Shown: piece by piece, positions 4,359 through 36,576 of the stretch
Position numbering within the stretch: position 1 is the stretch's first letter
Layout of the letters: the number at the start of each line of letters is the position of its first letter
IMG/VR virus record: IMGVR_UViG_3300043438_001421
Span: 1,126 to 65,125 of that record
Strand: one strand, 5' to 3'
From: a virus
Lineage: Duplodnaviria; Caudoviricetes
DNA: 64,000 nucleotides
Notes under the pieces: generated by a model
What the model was told of the DNA's origin: nothing
Databases searched by the model: none
Seen by the model: the letters and a program-made list of their open reading frames with translations, nothing else
Translations under genes and position numbers: made by a program

Positions 4359-4554
4359 AGAAAAACAATATACTTTTAATTTAACTGAAATGGAAGCATT
4401 TTATCTAAATGCAGCTGTAGTGGACTTTTTCCACAAAATGAAGAATGCTGCTGAGCAGGAAGTTGTTGTCCTGTTTATGGATGACAGATACAGAGTAGCT
4501 AAAGACTTGTGGGTAAAAGTTGAAAAGCAGATTCCAGTTGGTGAGTGGAAGTAG
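4351..4554 (+). CDS. hypothetical protein
   Basis: 67-aa ORF overlapping the MTase stop. Confidence 0.6.
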   Translation: MSEEKQYTFNLTEMEAFYLNAAVVDFFHKMKNAAEQEVVVLFMDDRYRVAKDLWVKVEKQIPVGEWK

Positions 4555-4574
4555 TATATGCTAGTATTTTATTG

Positions 4575-4904: not shown

Positions 4905-4918
4905 TACAATAGCCTTGT

Positions 4919-9167: not shown

Positions 9168-9300
9168 TCAGTATGAACAGTTTTTGCGTAATGAAATTCA
9201 ATGTATTAATAGCGCAGGTATAGTGTCAAAAGTCTCTGGATATAATAGATTTAGTGGAGCTGAAATATTCGCAGTCTTGAAGAGGTATTTAGATGACTAA
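9148..9300 (+). CDS. small hypothetical protein
   Basis: GAGGAG RBS then GTG; fills the gap between the aminotransferase and ATP-grasp genes. Confidence 0.45.
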   Translation: MNQQPTNQYEQFLRNEIQCINSAGIVSKVSGYNRFSGAEIFAVLKRYLDD

Positions 9301-11521: not shown

Positions 11522-12153
11522 TATATCCAATTATATTACATCATGATAAATCACTTGAGTATACAAAGTCTTTAGAGACAAATTTATTTGGACGTGAATA
11601 TGATGTCATTGATTCTTCAACTCTTCATACTTCATTTACTCAAAGTTTTAATATAGCTTGCATAAAAGCTTATACACATTTTCTTACTAATAAGTATACT
11701 CACGTTATGATATGTAATAATGACATATCTTTGAATAGTAGTCAGCTCGATATTCTTGATCAAAAAATTGGTGGTATGGATGGAATATTTACGCCTAGCG
11801 CAAATTCGCCGCATCACTCTGTAATGTCAGCGGTTGGATCGGATGATCTGAGAGAAGTTCCTTGGATAGAGTTTATCTGCCCGATTATCTCCTTTAGCGT
11901 TATTGACACAATTGGTCTCCTTGACACAAAGCTCCTTCATGGATGGGGAGTTGAGCTTGATTATTGCTATAGAGCTAGTCTTCAAAATTTTAAAACATAT
12001 TTAGTACAAAATGTCATAGTTCATCACTATGAGCATAGATCTCAAGATAATCATAATGATTATAGACATCATGCGAACTCGGAGATGAACCATGTGCTCA
12101 GGGGTAAGTACGGCGACGGCTGGCAGGAAATTTTGAAATATCCTCAGTGGTAG
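11518..12153 (+). CDS. glycosyltransferase family 2-like protein
   Basis: FTQSFN, ICNNDI, IGLLD..L.HGWGVELDYCYRA, VHH. Confidence 0.8.
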   Translation: MIYPIILHHDKSLEYTKSLETNLFGREYDVIDSSTLHTSFTQSFNIACIKAYTHFLTNKYTHVMICNNDISLNSSQLDILDQKIGGMDGIFTPSANSPHHSVMSAVGSDDLREVPWIEFICPIISFSVIDTIGLLDTKLLHGWGVELDYCYRASLQNFKTYLVQNVIVHHYEHRSQDNHNDYRHHANSEMNHVLRGKYGDGWQEILKYPQW

Positions 12154-12193
12154 TGTGCGATGGCCATACTATGATGCTATCATGCCAAGACTA

Positions 12194-12267
12194 CCGGCAG
12201 TAGCTCAGTTGGTGAGAGCACAAGTCTTATATACTTGCGGTCGGTGGTTCAATCCCACCCTGCCGGA
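12194..12267 (+). tRNA. tRNA-Ile(TAT)
   Basis: Acceptor CCGGCAG/CTGCCGG plus A73, D-arm TAGCTCAGTTGGTGAGAGC, anticodon arm CAAGT-ctTATat-ACTTG, T-arm GGTGG-TTCAATC-CCACC. Confidence 0.88.
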
Positions 12268-12280
12268 CTAAGGAGTTTAT

Positions 12281-12436
12281 ATGTCAGCTTTAGAACCTAC
12301 AAAGGAAGAGATGCAGGACTTAGTTGTTGTCGTTCTCCCAAGAGTCATAGTCGAAGCTATGAATAATATTGAGGGAGAGTTTTATAATGATGAAGTTGTG
12401 GACAAAGCTTTTGCAAAAGCTTTAGAAATGGATTAA
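12281..12436 (+). CDS. 51-aa hypothetical protein (not in the ORF track)
   Basis: AGGAG RBS at 12271; MSALEPTKEEMQDLVVVVLPRVIVEAM...ALEMD*. Confidence 0.6.
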   Translation: MSALEPTKEEMQDLVVVVLPRVIVEAMNNIEGEFYNDEVVDKAFAKALEMD

Positions 12437-12440
12437 TAAT

Positions 12441-12866
12441 ATGCAAACTTTTCTCCCGTCAGATGACTTTGCTCTGTGCGCTATGAGCCTTGATAGACAG
12501 AGGCTTGGTAAGCAAAGAGTTGAGACTTTACAGATCATGCAAACTTTAGCGGGCTTGAGTCGCGGGAAGGGTTGGATCAATCATCCAGCTACGAAAATGT
12601 GGAAAGGGCATGAGGATTATCTAATGCTTTATCAGATTGCTATCTGCCAAGAGTGGACTAGCAGAGGTTATAAAGATACTTGTATGTGGAAAACTTTTGA
12701 TGCCCTTGGCCAGATTGAGTATCCATCAACATACCCAGAGTGGATGGGGGATAACTCAATTCACTCTTCTCATAGAAGCAACTTGCTTCGCAAAGATCCA
12801 GATTTTTATTCACAGTTTGGCTGGCAGGAATCTGATGATCTAGACTATGTATGGCCAGTCCAATAG
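12441..12866 (+). CDS. pyrimidine dimer DNA glycosylase / MSMEG_6728-family protein
   Basis: MQTFLP..DF...LDRQRLGKQRVETLQI, GWINHPA..MW.G, HSSHRSNLLRKDP..Y, YVWP. Confidence 0.88.
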   Translation: MQTFLPSDDFALCAMSLDRQRLGKQRVETLQIMQTLAGLSRGKGWINHPATKMWKGHEDYLMLYQIAICQEWTSRGYKDTCMWKTFDALGQIEYPSTYPEWMGDNSIHSSHRSNLLRKDPDFYSQFGWQESDDLDYVWPVQ

Positions 12867-12877
12867 AAAGAGGTAAT

Positions 12878-13048
12878 ATGCCGAAGTTAAGAGTTTCGAA
12901 GGAAGCACTGCCGGAGTCGGAGTCTTCTGAAATTGATATCTATCCCGATGGCGACAAGAGTCGTCCGAGAGTCGGGGTTTTGAAGATCGATAAGGGCAAG
13001 TCAAATCTTATTTTAGATCCCGGTATTCTTCCGTACCAGAGCTTCTGA
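12878..13048 (+). CDS. hypothetical protein
   Basis: GAGGT RBS before the ATG at 12878. Confidence 0.5.
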   Translation: MPKLRVSKEALPESESSEIDIYPDGDKSRPRVGVLKIDKGKSNLILDPGILPYQSF

Positions 13049-13099
13049 AATCTGATATAATCTACACGTTGCGAACGTGGCGAACTGAATGGAGTAATT

Positions 13100-13423
13100 A
13101 TGGAAGATAGTTGGATTGATAAGCTCGCTGATGAAACTATGGCCTCGATGCCCCAGCCTGAAAAAGAATTTGTTCAAGCTATGATGGACATTGTAGAGCG
13201 TCATGGAAAGCTTGCAAATAATGATGGCAAGGGTATTTGGGTTGGTTATGTTGAAGCGTCTGAAAATGATGTGGCCTCTAGAGGCATTAAGTGCTTGAAC
13301 TGCGCCCACTATGAGGGCGATGGGATGTGTCACATCGTTGTTCAGACAGTTGAGCCGGAAGGTCTTTGCAGACTTGCAGCAATTCCCGATGCGATTGTCC
13401 GTCTTAATGATATGATGTCATAG
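13100..13423 (+). CDS. HiPIP-like 4-Cys (putative Fe-S or metal-binding) protein
   Basis: KCLNCAHY...MCHIV..TVEPEGLCRL has HiPIP-like Cys spacing; own TGATATAAT promoter and downstream hairpin. Confidence 0.7.
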   Translation: MEDSWIDKLADETMASMPQPEKEFVQAMMDIVERHGKLANNDGKGIWVGYVEASENDVASRGIKCLNCAHYEGDGMCHIVVQTVEPEGLCRLAAIPDAIVRLNDMMS

Positions 13424-13461
13424 TCCGAACGAAGCGCGAAATCCGTGTGAAGGCAGTGTTG

Positions 13462-13488
13462 GCGGGGGAGGTTATCTCCCCCGCTCTT
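13462..13488 (+). terminator. terminator-like hairpin
   Basis: GCGGGGGAG-GTTAT-CTCCCCCGC. Confidence 0.65.
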
Positions 13489-13502
13489 AATGGGAGATGT
13501 AA

Positions 13503-14687
13503 ATGTCCGATTCAATAAAAGTATTAGTTTTTTCAGATCAGCAGATTGAGGCATTGAGCTCAGATCTGCTTTCAAGATTTTCTATCGATATCAAGCCTTG
13601 TGATAATTTTGTAAATAAGGCTTTGTCTGAAAATAAACCTAATGTAATTCTTACATTTGGAGTTCTTGAAGACCATCCATCATTGGCTGATCAACCTCTT
13701 TGGATTAGAAAAAAGTGGATTCATATTGATGACTTCACAGTCACTCCAGAGCAAATAGCTTCATTGATTGAAGGATGCTTTGCTTCTCTTTTCCATGATA
13801 CAAGAGAGTTTACTGAGCCATTAGTTTCTATTATTACCCCAACTTTTAATACAAAAAATATATTTTGGCCGTATAGATCTGTCGCTGGTCAGGAGTACAA
13901 GAATATTGAGTGGATCATCTATGATGACGGTTCCGATAGCGAAGACACTATCAACTCAATCAAGCAGATTGCTTCTGTAGACCCTAGGATAAAAGTATTT
14001 TTTGCTGAGCACTCCGGATCAATCGGAGAGGTTAAGCACAATGCCTTTATGCTTGCTGAAGGGGAGATTCTTGTAGAACTTGATCATGATGACGAACTTA
14101 CTCCTTGGTGTGTTTCTTCAATTGTTGAGGCTTTCACCAAATTCCCCGACGCCGGCTTCGCCTACACAGACTGCGCCGAAGTGATTGGCGATGAACACGA
14201 AAATGCATCATACCCTGATGGCTGGGGATTTGGATACGGCAGTTATCGCTCCGAGTTTTGGCGTGGACGGGATTATCTAGTGTCTAACTATCCAGATATT
14301 AACTCCAAGACTATCCGGCATATCGTAGGTGTACCTAATCATGCTAGGGCGTGGAATGCAGCCTTCTACAAGTTAATTGGCGGACACAATAAGAGCCTCT
14401 TTGTCGCTGATGATTATGAGCTTTTGGTTAGAACTTGGCTTTCAACTCCTATGGTTCATATTCGTCGCTTCGGGTATATTCAGTATCATCATGAGAACAA
14501 TACTCAAAAGAAGCGCAATGCTGAAATACAAAATCTTGTTGCTTTGATTCACAGATCATATGAAGATAAAATTCATCAAACATTTTTAGATTTTGAAATT
14601 GACGATTTTATATGGCAAGATGGCGTGCTGAATTGGGGTATTGAGAATCCCGAACAAACTCCCATCACTAACTATGTAATGGATTAA
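13503..14687 (+). CDS. glycosyltransferase family 2 with N-terminal extension
   Basis: PLVSIITPTFN, EWIIYDDGS, VELDHDDEL, ADDYELLVR. Confidence 0.9.
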   Translation: MSDSIKVLVFSDQQIEALSSDLLSRFSIDIKPCDNFVNKALSENKPNVILTFGVLEDHPSLADQPLWIRKKWIHIDDFTVTPEQIASLIEGCFASLFHDTREFTEPLVSIITPTFNTKNIFWPYRSVAGQEYKNIEWIIYDDGSDSEDTINSIKQIASVDPRIKVFFAEHSGSIGEVKHNAFMLAEGEILVELDHDDELTPWCVSSIVEAFTKFPDAGFAYTDCAEVIGDEHENASYPDGWGFGYGSYRSEFWRGRDYLVSNYPDINSKTIRHIVGVPNHARAWNAAFYKLIGGHNKSLFVADDYELLVRTWLSTPMVHIRRFGYIQYHHENNTQKKRNAEIQNLVALIHRSYEDKIHQTFLDFEIDDFIWQDGVLNWGIENPEQTPITNYVMD

Positions 14688-15484: not shown

Positions 15485-15889
15485 ATGGCTGGAATTATTG
15501 TAGATATTGATGGAACATTACTCAGTGGCAATAATGGCATTGATAAGACTATTGCTTGGGTTAATGAGAAGTCAAAGAGCTATACTATCTATCTGGTGAC
15601 TGGTAGACCAGAAGAAGATAGAGCCAAAACGACAAGAGCTCTCAAGTCAAATGGCGTCAAATATAATAGGCTCTATATGAATGATAAATATAAAGATCAT
15701 GAGTATACTATGGAGCATAAGAGAAATAAAGCAACAGAGTTATTGAAAGATGACAATATCATATTGGCTGTAGATAATGATCCTGATGCTAGAGCAGTAT
15801 ACTCAAGACTTGGTATCCCAACCAAGAATCCATCAAGCTTGCCGAAGACTGTTGCCAAAATTGAAGGACTATGGCAGGGTTTATTTTAA
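15485..15889 (+). CDS. HAD-family phosphatase (PNKP 3'-phosphatase-like)
   Basis: IVDIDGTL, LVTGRPE, conserved K, AVDNDP HAD motifs I-IV; C-terminus IEGLWQGLF. Confidence 0.88.
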   Translation: MAGIIVDIDGTLLSGNNGIDKTIAWVNEKSKSYTIYLVTGRPEEDRAKTTRALKSNGVKYNRLYMNDKYKDHEYTMEHKRNKATELLKDDNIILAVDNDPDARAVYSRLGIPTKNPSSLPKTVAKIEGLWQGLF

Positions 15890-19401: not shown

Positions 19402-19737
19402 ATGAGTAAAAAGCTTAAAAAAATAGACTTCGTTGTAGAAGATCTTCGGGGCGTTTGTCTCTGGGAGATGCCTGACGGCACTCTTATTGGCGACGGAGAT
19501 GGGAGATTCTTATCACTTGAAGGTGATCTCAATTCTCCTATCATTGAATCGAAGATGAGAGATGCTGCTGTTGGATACGTTGGAATGCTCGCCTTAGATG
19601 GTGAGCCGATGTGGATTCCCGGTAGCAGAAAGATCACTGACAACGAAGCTGATGATCATACGGAAAGATTTATCGATGGCTATATTCCCGATCCAGTTGA
19701 TTCGGTGAAGCAATTGGCCCGAAAAGGGATGATATGA
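19402..19737 (+). CDS. hypothetical protein upstream of portal
   Basis: 111-aa ORF coupled to the portal (ATGA overlap); leaderless-type promoter upstream. Confidence 0.75.
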   Translation: MSKKLKKIDFVVEDLRGVCLWEMPDGTLIGDGDGRFLSLEGDLNSPIIESKMRDAAVGYVGMLALDGEPMWIPGSRKITDNEADDHTERFIDGYIPDPVDSVKQLARKGMI

Positions 19738-21407
19738 GAAGGATTACTGCAGCTTTAGCTGAAGAGAATACCAGTACTATTGAGATCGATGATATTACTA
19801 GTTCGTACACCGCCGATTTTACTAGAAAAGTTGTTGAGGATAAAGACATCTTCAAGAAGAAGATTGATGTATCCAACCAGTCGAAGCGCGTAAAGAATAA
19901 ATTTTACAAAATCAAGAAAAGATATCAAACAGGCGCTAGCGGAGCTGAGTCTGATTTCGTAGATCCAGAGGTTGTCAACGGGTATGGAATGTTCGATCTT
20001 GTCGAACCTCCATACAATCTTGAGGTGTTGGCTTCTTTGTTTGAAGAGAATGCTATCCATAATGCAACTATCTTGGCTAGAACAATGAATACTGTTGCCT
20101 TGGGATACGTCTGGGAAAACACGTCGAAGAGCAATAAAAGAATCGAAAGAGCCACTACCAAAGAGGGTGAATCACTCTCCAGACTTCGCGACGAGCTCCA
20201 GAAAGAAGAAGAGCGACTTGAATCTATCTTCGATGATCTTAATATTGACGAAGATTTCATCGAAACTCTTATAAAAGTTTGGATTGACTATTTAACCATT
20301 GGTAATGGTTATCTTGAAATTGGTAGAAATAGAAATGGAAGCATTGGTTATATTGGTCATATTCCAGGCGCATATGTAAGAGTTCGTAGAGCTAGAGATG
20401 GCTTTGTTCAAAAGGCTGGACTGAAGTTTACTTTCTTCAGAAACTTCCAAGATTTGGATACGCCAGATCAGATAAACGATGATAAGAATCCTAATGAAAT
20501 AATTCACTTTAAGCAATACACTCCAACGAACACCTACTATGGTGTTCCATCCGCTGTATCAGCGATTAGCTCTATTGTCGGAGATAAGTTTGCTAAAGAA
20601 TATAACATTGATTATTTTGAAAACAAGAGCATTCCCCGTTACGCAATTATCCTGAAAGGTGCCAATCTTTCTCAGAAGTCAAAGCAAGAAGTTGTTAATT
20701 ATTTCAAGAATGAAATCAAGGGCAACAATCACGGAACTCTTTTCGTTCCGCTTCCCGCCACTCTTGGCCGGGATGTAGATATTAAGTTTGAAAAGCTTGA
20801 GAACAATGTTCAGGAAGCTTCTTTCGATAAGTATCGTAAGTCAAATAGAGATGAGATCACAGTTGCGAACAGAGTGCCAGCGCCGAAGATTGGTATTTAT
20901 GATAATGCAAACTTAGCTGTCTCTAGAGATGCTGACAAGACTTTTAAGAATCAAGTTGTTGGACCTGATCAAAAAGTTATCGAGAAGAAGCTCAACAGAA
21001 TTGTAAGAGAGTTCAGCGATAAGAAGCAACTTAAGTTTGCAGAAATCGATGTAATTGATGAGGATCTGCGTTCAAGAATTTGGGATCGTTATCTTCGTAC
21101 AGAGGTTATTACGCCCAATGAGGTCAGAGGCAAGATCGGCATGACTGCCCTTGAATCTGGCGATGCCGTCCTTCCTTATCCAAGTAGGCTTACGAAGGAA
21201 AAGCAAGATTTCGAGATGGGCGTAGCAGAGCAGACTGGAGATCCAATGCCAGACAATGGCGGAGCTCCGGTTGGCAATACTAATGCTCAATCTGCAAGTC
21301 CGCCCAAGTCGGGCCAAGATAGTGCTGCTGGTGAATCATCACCTGCAGATCAAACAACAGGAAGGGCAGAGCGGGGAGCCAATCAAGACTCCAATCCGCC
21401 TGTATAA
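19734..21407 (+). CDS. portal protein (PBSX-like)
   Basis: VEPPYNL..L, GNGYLEI.R, NEIIHFKQY.P...YYGVP, YFENKSIP, VITPNEVR.KIGM. Confidence 0.92.
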   Translation: MRRITAALAEENTSTIEIDDITSSYTADFTRKVVEDKDIFKKKIDVSNQSKRVKNKFYKIKKRYQTGASGAESDFVDPEVVNGYGMFDLVEPPYNLEVLASLFEENAIHNATILARTMNTVALGYVWENTSKSNKRIERATTKEGESLSRLRDELQKEEERLESIFDDLNIDEDFIETLIKVWIDYLTIGNGYLEIGRNRNGSIGYIGHIPGAYVRVRRARDGFVQKAGLKFTFFRNFQDLDTPDQINDDKNPNEIIHFKQYTPTNTYYGVPSAVSAISSIVGDKFAKEYNIDYFENKSIPRYAIILKGANLSQKSKQEVVNYFKNEIKGNNHGTLFVPLPATLGRDVDIKFEKLENNVQEASFDKYRKSNRDEITVANRVPAPKIGIYDNANLAVSRDADKTFKNQVVGPDQKVIEKKLNRIVREFSDKKQLKFAEIDVIDEDLRSRIWDRYLRTEVITPNEVRGKIGMTALESGDAVLPYPSRLTKEKQDFEMGVAEQTGDPMPDNGGAPVGNTNAQSASPPKSGQDSAAGESSPADQTTGRAERGANQDSNPPV

Positions 21408-21684: not shown

Positions 21685-22023
21685 ATGGCAGCACCAGCGA
21701 ATTATCCATTATCAATTAGAATTGGCGATACTGAGACGGTATCTGTTACGCTTCAAGATGCCGATGGTGTTGCTATCAACATCACTGGAAGAACCTATTC
21801 AGCGCAGGTTAGAGAGAAGGCAAGTTCTGATTCTGCACTTGCTTCATTTACTTGTTCAGTAGTAAATGCTGCTCAAGGGAAGTTCGCTTGCACCTTGTCG
21901 TCAGCAACTACAACGGCTCTTTCGCCAGCAAATGCCGTATGGGATCTTCAGGAGAATAATGGAGGGGTGATCACAACTTTGATGGCGGGCGAAGCTGTGA
22001 TCTCTAGAGATGTAACTAGATGA
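21685..22023 (+). CDS. fibre adaptor / BppU-N-like protein 1
   Basis: [16 protein letters not shown]...G.F...LSSATT..L...VWDLQ...G...ISRDVT. Confidence 0.7.
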
Positions 22024-25000
22024 GCGATAACGTCACACTTAGGGTAGTTGAATCTCTTGTTCTTCGCCCTAGTGGTGACGGTGTTGTTCTTCAGAAAGTT
22101 GAGCCCGACACAGTTTTTTTGCAACAGAATATTGATGTTGCGATTTTGCGGGTTGATACTGATGATGTAATTATCAGACCTTCTGAAGAAGTTGTCCTTA
22201 AAAAAGATTCTGTTGACATTATTGCTTCAGGAGTTTCTGGTCCTATGGGGCCTCAAGGTGTTCAGGGGCCTCAAGGACCCGGTGGATTTGTTGGGTCCGA
22301 TGGTGCTCAGGGGCCGCAAGGTCCTCAAGGACCTTTTGGTGGTCCACAGGGTACACAAGGTCCTCAAGGCCCGCAAGGCGCTCAGGGATCTCAAGGCCCG
22401 CAAGGATCGCAAGGTTCGACTGGTGTTCAAGGTGCAACTGGCGCTACCGGGGCGACTGGAGCACAAGGTTCTCAGGGGCCTCAAGGAACGCAAGGTCCGC
22501 AGGGTTCTCAGGGTGCTACTGGTTCAATTGGTCTGACTGGCGCTCAAGGAAGTCAAGGCCCGCAAGGAGCACAGGGATCTCAAGGACCTCAAGGAACTCA
22601 GGGTGCTACTGGTTCGCAAGGCGCTACTGGCTCTCAGGGCTCTACTGGTGTGACTGGAGCGCAAGGCGCTCAAGGTCCGCAAGGAGCAATTGGCGCTACA
22701 GGTATTCAAGGAAGTCAGGGTCCTCAAGGCGCTATTGGGGCGACGGGGGCTCAGGGCAATGAAGGCCCTCAGGGTGCTCAAGGACCAAAGGGCTCACAAG
22801 GTGCAACAGGTGCAACTGGGCCTCAAGGTTTTCAGGGTCCACAAGGAGATCAAGGTCCTCAGGGAGCACAATCAACTGTTCAGGGTCCACAAGGAACTCA
22901 AGGCCCTCAGGGGCCTCAAGGCGCACAAGGATCAACTGGTGCAGCCTCTACTGTAGCAGGCCCTCAAGGCCCACAAGGCTCTCAGGGAATTCAGGGCCCT
23001 CAAGGTCCTCAAGGTCCTCAGGGTGCAACTGGAGCTCAGGGGGCGACGGGAGCGCAAGGTTCAACTGGCGCTCAAGGTTCTCAAGGTCCACAGGGACCTC
23101 AAGGATCAACTGGTTCCCAAGGTGCTACTGGATCTCAAGGTGTCATAGGAGATCAAGGTCCTCAAGGTACACAGGGTCCTATTGGAGCAACTGGTCTTAC
23201 TGGAGCGCAAGGTAGTCAAGGCCCTCAAGGCCCTCAAGGCCCTCAAGGCCCTCAAGGCAATCAAGGCCCTCAAGGTTCTACAGGAGCGGAATCCACTGTT
23301 CCCGGACCTCAAGGCGTTCAGGGGCCGCAAGGTTCTCAAGGATCTCAAGGGGCAACTGGCTCGCAAGGAACTCAGGGCCCTCAGGGAAGTGCTGGCGTTC
23401 AAGGGACTCAGGGACCTCAGGGTTCTCAAGGTGTCGCTGGATCGCAAGGTCCTCAAGGACCTGAGGGATCTCAGGGCAGTCAAGGATTTCAGGGCGCAAA
23501 TGGTGCTCAAGGACCCGCTGGTCCTCAGGGATCTCAAGGTTCAACGGGATCACAAGGAAGTCAAGGTCCCCAAGGTCCTGCTGGCGTTCAAGGAACACAG
23601 GGTCCTGAAGGAGCGCAGGGTGCCAATGGTCCTCAGGGCGATCAGGGCCCTCAAGGTGTTGTTGGAGCGCAAGGATCTACTGGTGCCCAAGGTTCGCAAG
23701 GCCCACAAGGCTCTCAGGGTGCGACGGGCGCTCAAGGATCTCAAGGTCCTCAGGGGTCACAAGGCTCTGTTGGTCCACAGGGAGATCAAGGGCCTGTTGG
23801 TTCACAAGGAAGTCAAGGTCCTGCCGGAGTCCAAGGTTCGCAAGGCCCTCAAGGGCCACAAGGTGCTGTCGGCTCCACTGGCGCTCAAGGTGATCAAGGC
23901 CCGATTGGCCCTCAAGGTAATCAGGGGCCTCAGGGTAATGTTGGGGCACAAGGTTCTCAGGGGCCACAGGGCGCATCTGGATCTACTGGTGCTCAGGGAA
24001 GTCAGGGTCCTCAGGGGCCACAAGGTTCTCAGGGTTCCGTTGGTCCTCAAGGTAGTCAAGGTTCATCTGGAGAGCAAGGAGATCAAGGCCCACAAGGACC
24101 TGTTGGCTCACAAGGAAGTCAAGGTCCTTCCGGGCCTCAGGGTAGCCAAGGTCCTCAGGGCATTGGTGGTGATCAAGGTGTTCAAGGACCTCAAGGACCT
24201 AATGGTAGTCAAGGAGCTCAAGGTTTTCAAGGCCCGCAAGGCGCTACTGGCAATACTGGCCCTCAAGGTTTTCAAGGCCCGCAAGGCGCTACTGGCGATA
24301 CTGGCCCGCAAGGTGTTCAAGGCCCGACTGGCCCGCAAGGCGATCAAGGCCCACAAGGCTCTACTGGTTCTACTGGCCCAACTGGCCCCCAAGGTTTTCA
24401 AGGCCCGCAAGGCGATACTGGCCAGCAAGGTTTTCAAGGCCCGACTGGCCCGCAAGGCGATCAAGGCCCACAAGGCTCTACTGGTTCTACTGGCCCAACT
24501 GGCCCACAAGGTTTTCAAGGCTCTACTGGCCTGACTGGCGATACTGGCCCGCAAGGCGATCAAGGCCCACAAGGCTCTACTGGTTCTACTGGCCCAACTG
24601 GCCCACAAGGAACACAAGGTCCTCAAGGACCACAGTCTACTGTAGCAGGTCCTCAAGGAGTACAAGGCGCTCAAGGTCCTCAAGGTCCTCAAGGTCCACA
24701 AGGTGCAACCGGAACGCAAGGAGCGGGCGGGGCGTTGGGGTATTGGGGTTCTTTCTATGACATGACGGATCAGCCATTAGTTTCTACAACTGTTGCCCAA
24801 GTTGTTTCTATTGGATCAACTGCTGATGGAAATGGTGTCACCGTTGAGAGTGGCGATGAGATCACCTTCGCTTATGCCGGCGTCTACAGTCTTACGTTCT
24901 CTATACAGGTAACTAACTATGCAAACTCTGTTGAGAAGTCAATCTTTTGGCTCAAGTTGAATGGATCGGATTATCCAGATTCTGCTACAGAAATGGATCT

Positions 25001-26765
25001 ACAACCTAGGAAAAGTTCATCCGAACCGAATCGTCAAGTCATAACTATCAATTATGTTGCCGAAGCTTCTGATGGTGATGCTGTTCAGGTTTATTGGAGC
25101 GGAACTAGTACTGAACTAAAGGTTGAGTCTCTTCCCGCTGGTACTTCTCCCGTCAGCCCAGCAGTTCCGTCGATTATTTTAACTGCTACTCAGGTTCTTT
25201 ATACTCAGGTTGGTCCTCAAGGATATCAAGGACCTCAGGGTCCTGCTGGTGTTCAGGGCAGTCAAGGGCCGCAAGGTCCGCAGGGTGCTCAGTCTACTGT
25301 TCAAGGCCCACAAGGCGATCAAGGCCCTCAAGGAGCTACCGGATCGCAAGGTGCTCAAGGCCCACAAGGTTCTACTGGCTCACAAGGCAGTCAAGGCCCG
25401 CAAGGCGCTACTGGCTCACAAGGCAGTCAAGGCCCGCAGGGCCCGATTGGCCCGCAAGGCGCTACTGGCTCACAAGGCAGTCAAGGCCCGCAGGGCCCGA
25501 TTGGCCCGCAAGGCGATCAAGGCCCGCAAGGCAGTCAAGGCCCGCAAGGCGCTACTGGCTCACAAGGCAGTCAAGGCCCGCAGGGCCCGATTGGCCCGCA
25601 AGGCGATCAAGGCCCGCAGGGCCCGATTGGCCCGCAAGGCGATCAAGGCCCGCAAGGCGATCAAGGCCCGCAAGGCAGTCAAGGCCCGCAAGGCGATCAA
25701 GGCCCGCAAGGCGATCAAGGCCCGCAAGGCGATCAAGGCCCGCAAGGCAGTCAAGGCCCGCAAGGCGCTACTGGCTCACAAGGCAGTCAAGGCCCGCAGG
25801 GCCCGATTGGCCCGCAAGGCGATCAAGGCCCGCAAGGCAGTCAAGGCCCGCAAGGCGCTACTGGCTCACAAGGCAGTCAAGGCCCGCAAGGATCGCAGGG
25901 CGATGTTGGCCCGATGGGGCCGCAAGGTGCTGCTGGCCTTAATGGATCAGATGGAGCGCAAGGTCCGCAAGGCGCTACTGGCCCGCAAGGTTCTCAAGGT
26001 CCGCAAGGCGCTACTGGCGCTCAAGGAGCTGTTGGCTCCCAAGGTGTTCAAGGCCCACAAGGCCCGCAAGGATCTCAAGGCTCTACTGGATCAACGGGTC
26101 CGACTGGATCTCTTATAGCTTATGCCGGATCTTCTGCGCCATCTGGGTGGCTTTTATGTGATGGCTCTGCGGTATCAAGAAGCACCTATGCCGACCTGTT
26201 TGCAGTAACTTCTACGACTTACGGCGTAGGCAATGGATCAACCACATTCAACCTGCCCGATCTTCGTGGACGTGTTCCTGTCGGCTTAGATAACATGGGC
26301 GGAACAGACGCTGCACGACTTTCTGTTGCAAATACTCTCGGCGGATCAGGTGGAGCTGAAACTCATACGCTAACTTCTTCTGAAATTCCGGCGCATAGCC
26401 ACGCAAATACCCTCGGAAGCAACACAGTTGCCTCAACTTCGCATACGCACACTGAAGGAAATCTTGCCACTGCAATCGGCGCTGTCAATAATGACGCTGG
26501 AACAATCGGGTACGAGTCAGGAACCCCTAGGCCAAACAGTAGAGGCCCTGTTTCTACTACTAACTATGTTGCTACAGGATTAACTATTTACAACGGCGCT
26601 TTTGGCCCTCTTACCTTTAATCACTATACAAGAGCATACGGAACAACAAGTGGCCCGACAGGATCTACTACTGTAAGTATCACAAATGCCAATAATACTG
26701 GCGGCGGCGGGTCACATAATAATATGCAGCCATATATCTTGATCAACTATATTATCAAGACTTAA
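22020..26765 (+). CDS. giant collagen-like fibre protein with internal C1q/BclA-like domain and C-terminal tail-collar domain
   Basis: More than 1000 aa of Gly-X-Y (GPQ/GSQ/GAT); globular insert at about 24730-25205; [20 protein letters not shown]...[14 protein letters not shown] collar and [14 protein letters not shown] end. Confidence 0.9.
25370..25890 (+). repeat. near-perfect tandem 9-bp-unit repeats (GGCCCGCAA/GGCGATCAA/GGCAGTCAA) inside the collagen gene
   Basis: Homogeneous codon usage and repeated multi-unit blocks. Confidence 0.85.
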
Positions 26766-26812: not shown

Positions 26813-27277
26813 ATGACTACTATTGTTAATGACGTTTCTGATGTAGGTATTTATAATATTGTGGGGGATCAAGGAACAACCTTTATCCGCCAAATTGTCT
26901 ACAAGAATTCTGCTGGGACTGCGATTAATCTTGGCACTGGCGCTTCTGCTCATATGATGGCTAGAAAGTCGTATCCCGCAACTCTGAAGACTGCGGCCTA
27001 CAGAAGTGATCCTGTTATCTGGATAAGTTCTGACGATCTTCAATACATCGGATCAACACAGGCAATTACTCTCACTCCAGCTACCGGAATAATTAATATT
27101 TCAATCCCGTCATCTTTGATGGGAAGCGTTGAAGCCGGTATATATGATTATGATCTTGAAGTTAGACTTGGAACATCCCCCGGAGTTGGTTCTGCCGGGA
27201 ATATTATTAAAATTATTCGCGGTTTATTTGAAGTAAGACAGCAGATGACGTACTTTAGTGGAGAGTATTATTACTAA
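26813..27277 (+). CDS. fibre adaptor / BppU-N-like protein 2
   Basis: DQGTTF...GTAINL...A.MMAR...G.INISIPSS...GIYDYDLEV...IIRGLFEV; similar to 21685..22023. Confidence 0.7.
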
Positions 27278-29613
27278 TGACTGAGGTTAATCAAACCACT
27301 AACGAAATTACTGTAAGTGGTATTGATACTACAGTTAGTGTTTCCCCCACTGCTGCTGGCCCTAATGTTACTGTTAATCGGGGGGTTCAGGCGATTACTG
27401 TTAGTCCTTCTGCTGTTGCTTCTGAGGCTTCTATTGGCATGGTTGGTCCGCAGGGTCCGCAGGGACCTATTGGTGACGGATCTGCTACTGTTTCTATTGG
27501 GACTACTACGACTGGATCTCCCGGTTCTTCTGCCGTTGTAGTTAATAGCGGAACTTCGACTGCTGCTATTTTAGACTTTACTCTTCCCAGAGGCGCTCAA
27601 GGGTTTCAGGGTCCTCAGGGCCCGCAGGGTGATCAAGGCCCGCAGGGCGCTCCATCATTTATAGAAGGTCCTGTAGGTCCGCAAGGATCGCAAGGTGCAA
27701 CTGGCGCTACTGGGTCGCAGGGGCCTCAGGGCGCTCAGGGCCCAGCGGGAATTGCTGGAGAGCAAGGCCCTCAAGGATTCCAAGGGCCTCAAGGCGCTCA
27801 GGGGCCTCAGGGATATCAGGGGTCTCAAGGGTATCAGGGAGATATGGGTCCACCCGGATTTCAAGGCGCTACTGGCGCTCAAGGCGCTCAAGGTGCCACT
27901 GGTCCTCAAGGCCCTCAAGGCTCGCAAGGCGCTCAGGGGGCCGACTCATTTGCTCCCGGTCCTCAAGGACCTCAGGGTCCTCAAGGACCTTTTGGTATTC
28001 AAGGCTATCAGGGAGAGCAAGGAGTTGTAGGCCCGCCCGGTCCTCAAGGCGATCAAGGCTCTCAAGGTCCGCAAGGTCCTCAGGGAGCGCAGGGTTCAAT
28101 TGGAGCGCAAGGCTCTCAGGGGCCTCAAGGACCAGAAGGATCTCAGGGATTTCAAGGTGTTCCGGGGCCGCAAGGTGATCAGGGATCGCAGGGGCCTCAA
28201 GGTCCTCAGGGAGCACAGGGTCCTCAAGGTCCTCAAGGTCCTCAAGGTCCTCAAGGAGATCAAGGACCTCAATCTACTGTTCAAGGACCTCAAGGAACCC
28301 AAGGTCCGCAAGGCCCGCAGGGCGCTACTGGCCCGCAAGGCGCTCAAGGCCCGCAGGGCGATGTTGGTCCGATGGGGCCGCAAGGCGCTGCTGGCCTTAA
28401 TGGATCAGATGGCCCGCAAGGCCCGCAAGGTCCACAAGGCCCTCAATCAACTGTTCAAGGCCCGCAGGGCCCGCAAGGCCCGCAGGGAACTCAAGGCCCT
28501 CAAGGCCCGCAAGGAACTCAAGGCCCACAAGGTGCCGGAGTTCCAGTAAGTGGAACACAAGGACAGATTATTGTTAAAAACAGTGCCACAAATTATGACA
28601 CTGTTTGGTCTAATAATTATGCTGGGTTTAAAAACTTTTTAATGAACGGAGATTTTCGCATTAATCAACGCGGATGGACATCTTCGACGGCATCTGGCAC
28701 ATATGGATTTGATCGCTGGAAACAGAGCAATGTTGGTGGCACAGTCACCATGACTCCGCAAAACTTTACGGTTGGATCTGGTCCTTCTTCTGATCATCAG
28801 CCGCAAAGATTTTTGAGAATTGTCACAAGCGGTCAATCCTCTACGAATAATGCCATTGTGGTTCAGGGCATTGAGGATGTTCGACTTCTTGCCGGAAAGA
28901 CTGTAACTGTTTCTTTTTGGGCCAAGTCTGGCTCCAGTACTCCGAGAGTTGCAGTTCAGTTTGAGCAGAATTATGGATCTGGCGGGAGCCCTAGTGCTTC
29001 CACTTACACCTCAGTGAGCTATGGAAGTATCTTATCAACAAGCTGGCAGCGTTTTACTGTAACACTTGCAATTCCATCAATTTCCGGGAAGACAATCGGA
29101 ACTACTGCAAATACTTCATATACTGCTTTATCATTGATTGTATCTAATGGTTCAGACGGAACGATTGGCATTCAAAACAATACTTTTGATTTCTGGGGTG
29201 TTCAGGTAGAAGAAGGATCGTATGCATCTTCATTTGAGGAGCGTCCTCTTCAGCTAGAGCTTGCAATGTGTCAAAGATATTATTATCGCCAAAATGGTAC
29301 TACGGGGAGCAGTTATGAGCATTTTGGAATTCCGGGTGTAGTCGCTGTATCAGGTAATGCTAACCGTAATGGTTGGCAAGTCCCTGTTCCTCCAAGAAGA
29401 GCAGTTGTTTCTGCTGATGTATCAAGTAGTAGTATAGATGTTTATGATGGTGGTGGCCCGTATGCCCTTACTATAACAAATATTTATCATATAGCTGGAA
29501 ATACTCAGATTGGCTTTGATGGGACTTTTACTGGCGGGTCAGTAGGGAGACCTTCTATTCCTCTGTTTAGAAATACATCAGGAGCTTTCATCGCTTTCAA
29601 TGTAGACTTCTAA
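27277..29613 (+). CDS. collagen-like fibre protein with C-terminal carbohydrate-binding-like domain
   Basis: About 310 aa of Gly-X-Y; [15 protein letters not shown]...[29 protein letters not shown]...ELAMCQRYY. Confidence 0.88.
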
Positions 29614-29659: not shown

Positions 29660-32263
29660 ATGACGATGCACTCAGCGGACTTAAATTTTACTTTCCCGTT
29701 TCAAAAAATTAATCAAGAGCAGCGAATCGTAACTGGTATTGCTACAGCCGATAACGTGGATCTTGCAGATGATATTGTTAACTTTGACGCCTCAGTTGAG
29801 GCTTTCTCTAATTGGGTGGGGAACATTCGAGAAATGCACTCTCCTATCGCAGTTGGAAAGCTTGTTGATTGGAAGTCAGTTCCGGTTGAACATAACGGCC
29901 AAATGTATCGTGGCATCGAAGTTTCCGTTTATATCTCTAAGGGTGCCGAGAATACTTGGCAGAAGATCCTTGATGGAACACTTCGTGGCTTTTCTATCGG
30001 TGGCATGGTTCAGGATAGGAAGACTAGGTTTATGGAAAAACTTGGGCGGAATATTAATGAAATTGTTCGTTATACTCTTGGTGAGCTTAGTGTTGTTGAT
30101 AATCCATGTAATCCTGCTGGAATGTTCGCTATGATCAAGAGTGTTGATGGCCAACTTGAGTATGTTGGCGAAAATCTTCAAGATGTTTTTTATTGTGAAG
30201 ATGACAAGTACGCTTCTGTTGGCGCAGATAGCGCTTGCCCTGCTTGCTCTGAGGAAATGGTTATCATTGGTCGGACAGAGACATTTGATAGTGTGCAAAT
30301 AAATAAGTTTATATCTTATTATGAAGATATTATGACGAAAGCTCTTTCCGATATTAATACTGTCCCCACTGACGCTATGGCCGCAGAGGCTCGTCGTGGT
30401 CTTGAGTGGAGAAGAGAATTTAATCGTGGCGGAACTGCTGTAGGTGTTGCTAGAGCTAGAGATATTATGAATAAAGATAGACTTAGTATCTCAACTGTTC
30501 GCAGAATGCACTCATTCTTTTCCCGCCATGAAGTTGATAAGCAGGGCAAGGGCTTCACTCCGGGAGATGGTTATCCTAGCGCCGGACGGATCGCTTGGGC
30601 TTTGTGGGGCGGAGATCCCGGTCAGACTTGGGCGCGCGCCATCACTAATAGAATTAAGGCTATGGAAAAGGCTGTCGGTACTGATGTCGAAGGAATGACT
30701 GTCGATGGGCCTTCTGAGATGATCTCGGAGACTACTAAGGCTGCAGCGAAGCGCGGAGATTTTGTTTCTTGGAATTCTTCTGGCGGAACTGCGCGGGGCA
30801 AGGTTGTGCGAGTTGAGAGAAGCGGAGAGATCGACGTTCCGAATTCAGACTTTAGTGTAGCGGGAACTTCGGAAGATCCTGCTCTTTTGATCCAGATTTG
30901 GAGGGAGGGCTCTGAAGGATGGGCTGCTACCGATACTTTTGTTGGCCATAAGTCTTCGACTGTAAGAGCAATTGCTGATCTTGATAAGTCTGTTGACACT
31001 GCTCAAATTGGTGAGGGTGGCGGTGGCATTAAAAATCCCGCTCAAGGCAATGAATTAGATTTTATTATTGGAAAAGTTGTGGTTGAGCGTGACGGAGAGT
31101 TCTGCGTCATGTCTGAAGATGGCTCTAGGAGCTTTGGTTGTTATCCTTCTGAGCGAGAGGCTAATAGCAGACTCGCTGAAGTTGAAAGTTTCAAAGAAAT
31201 GAATAAGGCTACTACTAAGCGCGAAGATGGAGAAGATTTTCCTGCCGCCGCTTTCGCCTATGTTCCAGATCCTGAGTCGCCTTCTACATGGAAGCTGCGT
31301 CTTTGGGACAGTCTTGATGAAAAAGAGACTGTTGCACAAGTTTCCCGCGCCGTTTCGGCTTTAAGCCCTTCCGGTTTTCGGGGAAATAGAGTTCAGATTC
31401 CCGCAGAGGATCTTGCTTCTGTTAAAGCAAAAGTTCGTGCAGCTTGGCGTCAGGTTAATGGACCTGATCGTGAGTTGCCTGCAATTCTGAAGAGAGATAA
31501 CTCCAATTATTTGGAAGACATCATAGAGAAAGGAGGCACAGATTCTATGAATTTGCAAGAAAATGAAATTAATGATAATGTAAATACTATGTCGGAAGAT
31601 TTAACGGAAACACAAAAGCAGAGCATCCTGTCGAAGATGGGAGAATTTATTTTTGGTAAGCAAGAGTCAATTGAAAAGGCTCAGACTATCGAAGTAAATA
31701 CTGCTAATGGCAACTTTAGAGTTGTCACTGATGGTTCTATGGCAAATCCTCCGCAGGTTGTTCTCAACATGGTCGATGTCGGCGCTGTTGAAGAAAAAGC
31801 TGGCCATATGGGCATGGATGAAGAAATGAAGTCATCCGGCGAAGATATGGTAGGAAAGTCTGAAGATGCTGGTACAGAAGAGGCTGCAACTGACGTTGTA
31901 GAAAAGTCTGAATCAGTTGATTCGGTTGATGAAGGAGAAGAAATGGATTTTGAAAAGGTACTTGAAGGCCTGAGCAATCTCCTTGACGAGAAGCTTGAGA
32001 AGGTAAAGGCAGAAATTACAGCAGAGGTTGACGGGAAGATCGAGTCCATCGAAAAGTCCGTTTCTGAGGTAAAGGAATCAGCCGAGGAAATCTCAAGCGA
32101 TCTTGAAAAGGTTGCTAACTCAGGTGCAGAGAAGAAGTCAGCTGATGTAGAAGCTGATGTTGTTGAAGAAGAGGTTCTCGAAAAGAGCGCCGATTCTGAA
32201 GGTTTCTGGGGCGGAATTTTTGTTCCCGTCGCAGTTGCTAAAGTTTTAGGCTACGATTCATAA
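29660..32263 (+). CDS. prohead protease fused to several accessory domains and a C-terminal acidic scaffold
   Basis: HK97-type protease motifs IREMH, GFSIGG, ELSVVDNPCN in aa 1-160; acidic coiled-coil C-terminus directly before the capsid gene. Confidence 0.9.
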   Translation: MTMHSADLNFTFPFQKINQEQRIVTGIATADNVDLADDIVNFDASVEAFSNWVGNIREMHSPIAVGKLVDWKSVPVEHNGQMYRGIEVSVYISKGAENTWQKILDGTLRGFSIGGMVQDRKTRFMEKLGRNINEIVRYTLGELSVVDNPCNPAGMFAMIKSVDGQLEYVGENLQDVFYCEDDKYASVGADSACPACSEEMVIIGRTETFDSVQINKFISYYEDIMTKALSDINTVPTDAMAAEARRGLEWRREFNRGGTAVGVARARDIMNKDRLSISTVRRMHSFFSRHEVDKQGKGFTPGDGYPSAGRIAWALWGGDPGQTWARAITNRIKAMEKAVGTDVEGMTVDGPSEMISETTKAAAKRGDFVSWNSSGGTARGKVVRVERSGEIDVPNSDFSVAGTSEDPALLIQIWREGSEGWAATDTFVGHKSSTVRAIADLDKSVDTAQIGEGGGGIKNPAQGNELDFIIGKVVVERDGEFCVMSEDGSRSFGCYPSEREANSRLAEVESFKEMNKATTKREDGEDFPAAAFAYVPDPESPSTWKLRLWDSLDEKETVAQVSRAVSALSPSGFRGNRVQIPAEDLASVKAKVRAAWRQVNGPDRELPAILKRDNSNYLEDIIEKGGTDSMNLQENEINDNVNTMSEDLTETQKQSILSKMGEFIFGKQESIEKAQTIEVNTANGNFRVVTDGSMANPPQVVLNMVDVGAVEEKAGHMGMDEEMKSSGEDMVGKSEDAGTEEAATDVVEKSESVDSVDEGEEMDFEKVLEGLSNLLDEKLEKVKAEITAEVDGKIESIEKSVSEVKESAEEISSDLEKVANSGAEKKSADVEADVVEEEVLEKSADSEGFWGGIFVPVAVAKVLGYDS

Positions 32264-32277: not shown

Positions 32278-33300
32278 ATGAGCAGCAAAGATTTATTAGA
32301 AAAGGTAATTAATACTACTCAGATTGGCGCCGGTTCAGGCGGTATTCTGAATGCAAAGCAGGCAAATCGTTTTATCGATTTTGTTTTCGATCAATCTGTC
32401 CTTATGAAGACGGCTCGCATCGTTCGTATGAACGAGCCAACCATCGACATTGATAAGGTTGATATCGGCCAGCGCATTATGCGCAAGGCTACTGAAGGTA
32501 CGGATGATGGCAGCAATGCTGATCCCACTTTCACGAAGATTTCTATGACCACCGTTAAGCTTCGCCTTGATTGGGAGCTTACCACTGAGGGTCTGGAAGA
32601 CAATATTGAAGGTGACTCTCTGGAAGACCATGTAGCATCGCTTATGGCCCGCCAGACTGCAAATGATCTTGAGGATCTTTTGATTCACGGTGATACCTCG
32701 GAGACTGGCCTTCCGTTGATTAAGGCTCTTAATGGCTTCCGTAAGCTTGCTAGAGCCAATGGCGTTGTTGTAGACGCCGCTGGTGCAAACCTCACTCGCG
32801 CAGTATTTGATGCAGCGCTTCGTGATATGCCCAATAAGTACCTGCAGCGTCGGTCACAGCTTGCGTTCTCAACGTCAAGCTCGTTGCTTCAGGATTATAT
32901 TCACAGTCTTACTCTTGATGTTGCCGCTAATGGTGGCCCTTCTGCTGGTTCTGTTCTTGGCGATGCTATCGTCAATCAGGGCCTTGGTGGAGGTCAGGGT
33001 GGCGGTGCTGGTACGGCTTATGTCGCTGGCATTCGTCCATTCGGTATCCCGCTTCTTGAGATTCCTCTTTACGAGGAGACTGAGACTGGCTCATACACCG
33101 CTGCTACTGGTCAGCATGGTGTTGTTGAACTTACGTTCCCGCAGAACCGCATCGTCGGTATGCAGCGTGACATTGTTGTCTATCGTGAGTTTAAGCCCAA
33201 GAAGGATGCTATTGAGTACACTCAGTTCATTCGGGTTGCTTGTCAGATCGAAAATGCCGCTGCTTACGTTCACGTTCGCAACGTCAAGGTTCGTTCATAG
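32278..33300 (+). CDS. major capsid protein (HK97 fold)
   Basis: GGILNAKQANRFID, LEDNIEG..LEDH...MARQTANDLEDL.IHGD; strong RBS; terminator follows. Confidence 0.92.
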   Translation: MSSKDLLEKVINTTQIGAGSGGILNAKQANRFIDFVFDQSVLMKTARIVRMNEPTIDIDKVDIGQRIMRKATEGTDDGSNADPTFTKISMTTVKLRLDWELTTEGLEDNIEGDSLEDHVASLMARQTANDLEDLLIHGDTSETGLPLIKALNGFRKLARANGVVVDAAGANLTRAVFDAALRDMPNKYLQRRSQLAFSTSSSLLQDYIHSLTLDVAANGGPSAGSVLGDAIVNQGLGGGQGGGAGTAYVAGIRPFGIPLLEIPLYEETETGSYTAATGQHGVVELTFPQNRIVGMQRDIVVYREFKPKKDAIEYTQFIRVACQIENAAAYVHVRNVKVRS

Positions 33301-35828: not shown

Positions 35829-36020
35829 ATGTATAGAGCAATAACTTATATTGGTAAAGGCTCTGGCAAGGTAGTAAGATTTAAAAATAAGGTCTATGAA
35901 TTTGAGTGGCAAAAATCCTTAGGGATTGGAAATCGCTCAGATGAAGTTGAGTTTGATCATGCAATGAGAATTGCTAAGAGAAAAACTAAAAAAGGTAAAA
36001 AGCTATTTATTTTGGAATAG
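35829..36020 (+). CDS. small basic hypothetical protein
   Basis: 63-aa ORF between the terminator and tail tube genes. Confidence 0.6.
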   Translation: MYRAITYIGKGSGKVVRFKNKVYEFEWQKSLGIGNRSDEVEFDHAMRIAKRKTKKGKKLFILE

Positions 36021-36030
36021 GAGGAAAAAA

Positions 36031-36576
36031 ATGGCAGTAACATTTTCGAACATTATCACTGGTGAAGGCATCCTTTCGATTGGTAACACTGTTGGCACGG
36101 TATCTGATATCGGCGCCACTCAAGACGGTGCTGAAATCGCTTGGGAACCTGACATGGTTGACATCGAAATCGATCAGTTCGGTGACGCAGCTCGCGTTAT
36201 CGTTTCAAAGATCAAGGTTTCGATCAAGACAAAGCTCGCTGAAGCTACCCTTGAGAACCTTGCTTACTCATGGAACCTGCAGACCTCTGGCCCTGAGTCA
36301 GAGCTCACGTATGGTGGAGCAAGCACGACTCTTCGTATGGGTATTCAGTCAGTCTATCCCGTAGAGCGTGCAATTACTCTTGTAGGTAACGCTCCCGGCA
36401 CAAGTGGCACAGTCACTAAGACTCGTACTTATAGCTGCGGCAGAGTTATTCAGTACAGCTCTTCATCACATATGCTGAAGCGTGCTGAGAATGCAGCTTA
36501 TCCTGTCGATTTCCGTATTCTCCCAAACCCGGCAAACACGGGTCAGGAATACGGCACCATTGTCGATCAGATCTGA
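36031..36576 (+). CDS. major tail (tube) protein
   Basis: GGAGG RBS; DIGATQDGAEIAWEPDMVDIEIDQ, LAEATLENL, FRILP. Confidence 0.88.
   Translation: MAVTFSNIITGEGILSIGNTVGTVSDIGATQDGAEIAWEPDMVDIEIDQFGDAARVIVSKIKVSIKTKLAEATLENLAYSWNLQTSGPESELTYGGASTTLRMGIQSVYPVERAITLVGNAPGTSGTVTKTRTYSCGRVIQYSSSSHMLKRAENAAYPVDFRILPNPANTGQEYGTIVDQI

Follow-up and report, generated by a model that had tools for sequence, protein, structure and literature searches.

A candidate self-processing head-assembly polyprotein with an exchangeable cassette of small domains between prohead protease and scaffold in a tailed phage

What is known of internal head proteins comes mostly from a handful of model phages (T4, P1, P22 and the giant phages), and the T4 prohead protease gp21 cuts after glutamate. 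Protease and scaffold occur as fusions or nested pairs in lambda (C/Nu3), P2 (gpO) and Mu (I/Z), and the HK97 protease enters the particle by means of its C-terminal part and breaks up an internal scaffold domain. In encapsulins, a short C-terminal peptide docks an enzyme or a ferritin-like cargo inside a shell of the HK97 fold. The HK97 capsid protein is reported to be cleaved at K103/S104 (PMC10275583). The internal proteins of T4 and the Dar proteins of P1 are described as being loaded into the prohead by a signal, trimmed by the protease, kept and injected, some of them defeating restriction (PMC9024508). In SPN3US, with gp245, and in phiKZ, one prohead protease is described as processing many internal head proteins at a short motif, after glutamate, and giant-phage propeptides as being cut at several places (PMC10052503). 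Here we analyse a window of 64 kb (64,000 nucleotides, nt) of a marine phage, from the 65,125-bp IMG/VR virus record IMGVR_UViG_3300043438_001421 (Caudoviricetes; completeness estimate 63%), in which an open reading frame (ORF) of 867 amino acids (aa) just ahead of the major capsid gene strings small folded domains between a prohead protease and a scaffold.

The chain runs from an assemblin-fold serine protease through a zinc ribbon and four small folded domains (D1, a Tudor domain or D2, D3 and D4) to an acidic coiled-coil scaffold with a conserved C-terminal tail. We consider it probable, on balance, that this is a self-processing head-assembly polyprotein, in which the folded domains form a variable cassette between the protease with its zinc ribbon and the scaffold with its tail, and that the released domains stay in the head. 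Its general layout, with protease, domains and scaffold in one protein upstream of the capsid gene, had been proposed in an initial annotation made from the sequence alone and is borne out by profiles and by an AlphaFold2 model. As in HK97 gp4/gp5, a serine protease of the same fold class lies just upstream of the capsid gene, and cleavage would follow a lysine and precede a small residue. In HK97, however, the capsid protein supplies the scaffold as its delta domain, and the protease is a short protein by itself, whereas here protease and scaffold form one chain, the capsid propeptide would be at most 9 aa, and four extra folded domains lie in between. With lambda C/Nu3, P2 gpO and Mu I/Z the locus shares an N-terminal protease and a C-terminal acidic helical scaffold in one frame, possibly with internal starts; the acidic helical C-terminus, the conserved tail and the adjacent capsid gene without a delta domain place it among protease-scaffold fusions. 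The 400-450-aa members of its own family, represented by MindFlayer gp49, share the protease, the zinc ribbon, the tail motif and the capsid N-terminus, but this basal form has no cargo domains.

The polyprotein was modelled from 84 homologs with a mean predicted local distance difference test score (pLDDT) of 68; the low predicted TM-score (pTM) is expected because the architecture is one of beads on a string. Profiles and model together place the folded parts at aa 6-150 (protease), 172-230 (zinc ribbon and helix), 238-340 (D1), 362-443 (Tudor barrel), 470-513 (D3) and 518-611 (D4), and pLDDT falls below 50 at 151-171, 340-361, 444-469, 511-517, 612-648, 666-673, 702-761 and 819-848. The protease matches phrog_9427 (residues 7-213, E 2e-64). 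With Pfam Peptidase_S78_2 (PF14550) the window protein reaches 21.2 bits at a cut-off of 24, and two relatives, P0068 (23.5 bits) and P0109 (26.0 bits), pass the PF04586 cut-off of 21. Its predicted fold is that of T4 gp21 (5jbl; VIA Z 13.1, root-mean-square deviation 3.1 over 132 aa; Foldseek probability 1.0, E 1.7e-3), and herpesvirus assemblins follow at VIA Z 6-7.2 (varicella-zoster virus (VZV) protease, 7.2), so that by structure comparison it is an assemblin-fold prohead serine protease. H60 and S112, invariant in 133/133 aligned family members, are presumably the catalytic pair, an assignment made from their position rather than from superposition. At E up to 1e-30 the family has 263 representatives; a limit of 1e-10 raises the number to 1081. 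A Cys knuckle behind the protease had initially been counted among the cargo; its cysteines 179, 193 and 196 are present, but they belong to a predicted zinc ribbon that is part of the conserved core, since a regular-expression pattern finds it in 84/87 lineage proteins and it recurs in the 430-aa MindFlayer protease-scaffold protein.

Among the domains of the cassette, D1 matches phrog_2859 (residues 229-336, E 9e-33) and, folded alone by AlphaFold2, reaches a pLDDT of 95. Comparison with solved structures gave no known fold (best Foldseek PDB match E 1.4; best Z 5.3 in VIA-align over 48,161 chains), a result that falls short of showing the fold to be new. Its motifs R-H-E-x-D and P-S-x-G-R-x-A-W...W-G-G-D are invariant across 26 diverse sequences, and these conserved polar residues cluster in what may be a site of binding or catalysis. 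The Tudor/Hva1-like reading of D2 was confirmed: Hva1_TUDOR (PF11160) matches residues 366-412 with 27.4 bits, above its cut-off of 24.1, which makes D2 a member of that family, and Tudor, KOW and chromo barrels match residues 360-445 at Z 6-6.8 (VIA). D4 matches phrog_19463 (residues 514-652, E 3e-26); with DUF6582 (PF20223) hhalign gave a probability of only 7.8% (E 0.0044, 48 columns), and the Atlas neighbour score was 0.83. A PDB search by sequence returned no sensible match at E up to 1. Where characterised, the domains other than D1 are small modules of nucleic-acid- or metal-binding type, and any domains retained in the head would most likely be DNA-associated passengers rather than enzymes.

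The case for self-processing rests on a lysine that recurs at the joints between these parts (a slash in a motif marks the proposed scission). All the sites listed initially, including LEK/V at capsid K9, lie at the residues given for them, and the polyprotein has candidates at K160, K227, K337, K360, K443, K472, K516, K624, K673, K749, K799 and K842. There are 17 matches to the pattern [MILVT]xK[SAGV], which was chosen post hoc after inspection of the sequence, as compared with 4.9 +/- 2.1 in shuffles, and 0/5000 shuffles reach 17. With a stricter [MILVF]xK[SAG] the count is 12 where 3.4 are expected (z 4.8), and 17 other window ORFs pooled show no enrichment (51 against 39.5). Low-pLDDT segments make up 31% of the residues, and 12/17 motif sites lie in them or no more than 3 aa away (binomial P 1e-3), compared with only 10/35 non-motif lysines in or near them. 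A site is found at every one of the five low-pLDDT linkers between domains, and linkers 340-361 and 444-469 have one at each end, as though these two were to be trimmed away themselves. Since the candidate sites lie at domain edges and not within folded domains, the domains would be released intact.

The same lysines persist among relatives. In an alignment of 62 proteins with the same protease and tail, where the denominators are the sequences aligned at each site, the joint lysines are kept at K160 (62/62), K227 (58/60), K360 (38/38), K443 (38/42), K472 (20/21) and K516 (29/37), and the scaffold lysines at K799 (61/62), K826 (62/62) and K842 (62/62), while the P2 and P3 residues around them vary. 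The cleavage rule first suggested, a lysine followed by Ser or Ala, stands for the lysine and has to be relaxed for what follows it: V, M, I, R and G also occur at P1', and this residue is variable at K472. Across 134 family representatives with pairwise identity of no more than 50%, Phi-x-K-[SAG] is found 1195 times against 303 expected (z 57); lysine is the only one of the 20 residues strongly enriched at the motif position, and glutamate is depleted.

The joints can also be compared with those of a lineage that uses another protease. A 190-kb phage (L004) encodes at positions 3001-5607 an 868-aa polyprotein in which D1, Tudor and D4 are combined with a different, unclassified N-terminal protease (phrog_16951). 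In the L004 class, Phi-x-K stands at the joint of D4 in 0/6, of D1 in 0/5 and of Tudor in 1/9 distinct contexts, with E or D instead, in what is a single evolutionary observation because the class is one shallow clade; in the window lineage, K stands at the same joints in 13/13, 42/42 and 18/18 distinct but related contexts. One such pair is V-L-E/A-V-T-K-R-E in the L004 class and M-N-K/A-T-T-K-R-E in the window lineage. In these contexts the joint residue covaries with the type of protease. A class with XkdF at the C-terminus (P0105-like, L006) was considered as a further control and set aside, since it is a different head protein and not adjacent to the capsid gene; its joints are mixed: those of D1 and D4 have K/Q, K/A or K/E, and Tudor is mostly not preceded by K.

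These comparisons bear on whether the cassette is cut at all. Conceivably only the scaffold and the capsid N-terminus are processed and the middle stays one multi-domain protein, its joint lysines being conserved for another reason, be it recombination hot spots formed by short M-x-K-A repeats, the solubility of the linkers, or docking. Recombination between short repeats predicts deletions that run exactly between copies of M-[SN]-K, as is seen, and the loose P1' at K472 and the helical surroundings of K227 would suit uncut joints. Such conservation is difficult to reconcile, however, with lysine as the sole enriched residue at the motif position family-wide, with E or D at the same joints where the protease type differs, and with sites that bracket the disordered linkers so precisely. 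We regard an uncut middle as distinctly improbable. The conservation, enrichment, linker position and covariation of the lysines argue instead for cleavage at these sites.

Comparison of orthologs supports the modular cassette put forward in the initial annotation and shows that the protease before it and the scaffold behind it are conserved; swaps and deletions begin or end at joint lysines. Orthologs exchange the Tudor domain for DUF5824 exactly between K360/ and K443/. A deletion of D4 runs from M-S-K/ to I-N-K/, with a ferritin/Dps domain then following directly. Elsewhere D3 is dropped, a DnaJ-type zinc finger is inserted after K443, or D1 and the zinc ribbon are reordered; a pattern census, which is approximate, counts 22 domain orders among 87 lineage proteins. 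The best 150 family representatives have a median length of 447 aa, 39/150 are 500 aa or longer, and about a quarter carry extra domains. Many long representatives contain DUF6582, DUF6321, ferritin, DUF5872, ChaB or Tudor, and proteins of the window lineage reach 800-1090 aa through the variable cassette.

Such exchange also matters for a second alternative, in which the domains are indeed cleaved out but serve assembly only, as core filler, size control, chaperone or transient DNA-free scaffold, and are then degraded further or expelled together with the scaffold; cargo would then be absent from mature heads, and there would be no delivery. Propeptides and scaffolds generally leave the head after cleavage (PMC10052503). 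Neither Pfam profiles nor the D1 fold searches revealed a recognisable effector activity in any polyprotein domain, and the presence of D1 and D4 in or beside scaffold-type genes of differently laid-out phages, described below, fits an assembly role as well. Parts essential for assembly would not usually be swapped, lost and reordered so freely among close relatives, however, and neither ferritin/Dps nor HAD enzymes have an evident role in assembly. Sites at the domain edges, from which the domains would emerge intact, likewise speak against disposal. A purely assembly-related function seems unlikely to us.

The capsid protein begins M-S-S-K-D-L-L-E-K/V-I-N-T-T-Q-I-G-A-G-S-G-G-I-L; its K9 is invariant in a 44-sequence alignment (94 distinct N-termini were compiled), and the first 9 residues, ending L-L-E-K/V, are a candidate short propeptide. 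The N-terminus of the capsid protein of the cultured Streptomyces phage MindFlayer reads E-L-I-E-K/V. The peptide that follows K443, S-V-D-T-A-Q-I-G-E-G-G-G-G-I-K, copies the N-terminal arm of the capsid protein (nt 30980-31075 against 32293-32350), a likeness also found independently by a genome search (E 1e-3); it may serve the protease as an extended recognition sequence or act as a decoy for the N-arm. Such a copy is present, by pattern census, in 54/87 lineage proteins. The tail motif Phi-W-x-G-x-F occurs in 105/134 family representatives and only twice in the six frames of the window, both times at a C-terminus, that of the polyprotein and that of a HAD-family phosphatase encoded 14 kb upstream. 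Among 30 HAD homologs (46-97% identical), the motif forms the exact C-terminus of 25 and stands five residues short of it in one more; another shows an F-F variant, and the remaining three, which are shorter, lack it. The tag that the initial annotation ascribed to the HAD enzyme is therefore present, is the motif of the scaffold tail and is kept in homologs, whereas loading of the enzyme into the head is something we infer from it. Fusions of HAD-like domains with head proteins that contain D1 occur in other phages.

It is worth noting that the gene may also be read from within. Shine-Dalgarno words with in-frame ATG codons precede M630 and M762, and they recur at matching positions in loci that are 40-44% identical and use different words (AAGGAG or GGAGG); alignment column 762 holds only M (54/62) or V (8/62). 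These would be nested genes, for which we take lambda C/Nu3 to be the precedent, with most translation starting at M630 and M762 and the full-length protease-cargo chain as a minor product. The strength of the two words and their recurrence in divergent loci favour such starts. GGAGG is not specific to gene starts, however, with 53 copies on the + strand; such words are likely by composition alone in coding sequence rich in E and G, and the second methionine is found in only 67/134 representatives. From these sequence features we give predominant internal initiation a little less than an even chance. It would modify the stoichiometry of the polyprotein rather than exclude a self-processing chain whose domains are retained.

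Several points weigh against such a chain. If the internal starts are used, most scaffold molecules may carry neither protease nor cargo. An automated breakpoint test found 18/112 breakpoints within 2 aa of a site (9% at random) and 51/112 within 5 aa (19%), a weak and noisy enrichment of only about twofold, since unrelated domains are paired by global alignment and their edges blurred. AlphaFold2 predicts helix at K227 and at the scaffold sites K781, K799 and K817; the proposed coincidence of sites with domain boundaries holds for the five modelled linkers, which have a site on or beside them, while K227 has no disordered linker. K160, at the end of the protease fold, might owe its conservation to structure. 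Phi-x-K-[SA] in the scaffold could partly reflect coiled-coil composition, although E is depleted in the scaffolds and the scaffold of the other protease class has no K enrichment. The sequences within each protease class are related, so the joint counts are not independent events; the capsid protein of the L004 phage shows no clear E/ propeptide; and no cultured phage carrying a protease-cargo-scaffold cassette was found. Nevertheless, sites displaced from the domain boundaries in orthologs, which the initial annotation had named as evidence against itself, were not what the comparison brought to light, noisy as its automated version is.

Self-processing with retained domains would proceed as follows. 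The scaffold and its Phi-W-x-G-x-F tail would dock on the inner face of the capsid protein, as their conservation and the behaviour of other scaffolds suggest, and the whole chain would be built into the procapsid. Concentrated inside, the protease would cut after lysine in Phi-x-K/(S, A or G, sometimes V or M), where its own domain ends, on either side of the disordered linkers, at many scaffold sites and after capsid K9. The scaffold, whose fragments are acidic (pI 4.0-4.3) with 9-60 aa between sites, would fall into peptides able to exit from the shell. At 5-12 kDa, the folded domains (D1, Tudor, D3 and D4) would be too large to leave easily and would remain beside the DNA as internal head proteins, as would the Dps/ferritin, DUF5824, DnaJ-type zinc finger, DUF6582 and DUF6321 domains of relatives. 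The HAD phosphatase, from a gene of its own, bears this tail motif behind a Phi-x-K site and would be taken in through the same docking. Once retained, the domains may condense or protect the genome, or might enter the cell with the DNA and conceivably act there as anti-defence effectors.

D1 and D4 also occur in head genes with other layouts. Among predicted viral structures (BFVD), D1 has 62 matches, with prohead proteases, XkdF-type proteins, portals, a capsid fragment, HAD-like proteins, ParB/Srx and Dps as fusion partners. It is N-terminal in protease-capsid fusions of the cultured phages Roseobacter CRP-811 and Synechococcus S-CBS1 and S-CBS3, and in Vibrio phage 1.027.O (genes 23-24) it opens a gene of its own, which immediately precedes the one for the scaffold. 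In Salmonella phage 9NA, D4 lies inside gp38, directly upstream of the head genes. The spread of the two domains across these phages makes them parts of head modules in many lineages. The scaffold-like 9NA gp38 (L002:5650-6906) starts G-V-T-K-P-A-H-E-G-A-N-A-L-M-L-K/S, which resembles the last strands of the protease domain (V-V-D-N-P-C-N-P-A-G-M-F-A-M-I-K/S in the window), and D4 follows in gp38 behind L-N-K/A; from its sequence this start looks like the relic of a lost protease.

The features of the locus are collected in Table 1. The head module is ordered portal, two collagen-like fibre genes, the 867-aa ORF and, 15 nt after its stop, the capsid gene. The true start of the polyprotein is probably its third codon, ATG 29666, giving 865 aa, because GGAGG lies 7 nt upstream and many homologs have 865 aa. 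The fibre genes (22020-26765 and 27277-29613) are very long, consist of G-x-x repeats and have a G+C content of 57%, compared with about 43% in the rest of the window. A major-tail-protein-like ORF at 35971-36576 is listed with a TTG start that is probably wrong; ATG 36031, with GGAGG 6 nt upstream, would give 181 aa. Auxiliary genes at 2544-3065, 4919-5722 and 7193-14687 encode a peptide deformylase, ThyX, an aminotransferase, an ATP-grasp enzyme and a cluster of sugar-modifying enzymes and glycosyltransferases. Relatives lie on contigs of about 90-100 kb, and no near-identical DNA was found among cultured phages.

Table 1. Coordinates in the window of the polyprotein gene, its parts and the associated genes.
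Feature	Position (nt)	Strand	Remarks
HAD-family phosphatase, 134 aa	15485..15889	+	ends V-A-K/I-E-G-L-W-Q-G-L-F; motif nt 15866-15886
Portal protein gene	19734..21407	+	marker of head module; phrog_12, E 3e-55
Polyprotein ORF, 867 aa	29660..32263	+	directly upstream of major capsid gene
Prohead serine protease domain, aa 1-160	29660..30139	+	ends M-I-K/S (K160), within disordered 151-171
Zinc ribbon (C179, D182, C193, C196) and helix, aa 161-227	30140..30340	+	ends M-T-K/A (K227)
D1 (...IAWALWGGD...), basic five-helix, pI 10.8, aa 228-337	30341..30670	+	ends M-E-K/A (K337)
Disordered acidic linker peptide, aa 338-360	30671..30739	+	flanked by candidate sites K337/ and K360/; pLDDT <50
D2, Hva1-type Tudor / SH3-like barrel, aa 361-443	30740..30988	+	ends L-D-K/S (K443)
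Disordered 29-aa peptide, aa 444-472	30989..31075	+	flanked by K443/ and K472/; resembles capsid protein N-terminus
D3, small beta-hairpin and helix, two Cys, aa 473-516	31076..31207	+	ends M-N-K/A (K516); absent from some orthologs
D4, AFAYVPD...PSTWKL, aa 517-624	31208..31531	+	ends I-E-K/G (K624); pLDDT ~86
Acidic scaffold region, aa 625-867	31532..32260	+	many Phi-E-K/S sites
Internal AGGAGG, ATG 31547 (M630) 10 nt later	31532..31549	+	possible nested start, 238-aa product
Internal AAGGAG, then ATG 31943 (M762)	31928..31945	+	possible nested start, 106-aa core scaffold
Scaffold long helix, aa 764-820	31949-32119	+	AlphaFold2
Conserved tail, aa 843-867	32186-32260	+	contains G-F-W-G-G-I-F, aa 848-854, nt 32201-32221
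Major capsid protein, 340 aa, no delta domain	32278..33300	+	phrog_1623, E 3e-84

Seen beside the known ways of filling a head, the arrangement has its own features. T4 and P1 internal proteins come from separate genes and carry N-terminal signals, whereas here most cargo is strung on the protease-scaffold chain and the presumed free cargo, the HAD enzyme, has a candidate C-terminal signal and a Lys site. Neither the cargo domains nor the HAD enzyme combine a separate gene with an N-terminal targeting peptide, as T4-type internal head proteins do; by analogy, the polyprotein may work like the T4 internal proteins without being one of them. SPN3US and phiKZ differ in having dozens of separate genes, a different motif and no polyprotein. 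The locus resembles encapsulins in the C-terminal peptide on the HAD enzyme, whose docking is predicted, and in the ferritin-like cargo of orthologs, and differs in that its shell is the capsid of a DNA-packaging virus and its peptide motif is another. A literature search, which did not cover subscription journals, found neither a protease-cargo-scaffold polyprotein nor these DUFs as head cargo, and the cassette is apparently an undescribed variant of the protease-scaffold fusion joined to the theme of internal head proteins. Cleavage after lysine is invisible in ordinary tryptic digests, which may be why such processing went unnoticed.

The analysis suggests a rule for this family, namely that anything lying between two Phi-x-K/ joints, or given the C-terminal tail, should reach the head. 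If the rule is true, it explains the location of the orphan families DUF5824, DUF6582, DUF6321, DUF5872, ChaB and D1, and ferritin/Dps as a head passenger links virus capsids with encapsulins. More tentatively, the heads of this family might be addressable containers, in which small exchangeable proteins, among them Dps/ferritin, Tudor, zinc fingers and D1, are released by a lysine-specific cut, free enzymes are loaded by a C-terminal peptide and the passengers enter the next cell. We hold this doubtful at present; if it is true, the family would possess an encapsulin-like cargo system in a virus, and with it a natural, programmable platform that delivers proteins by two routes.

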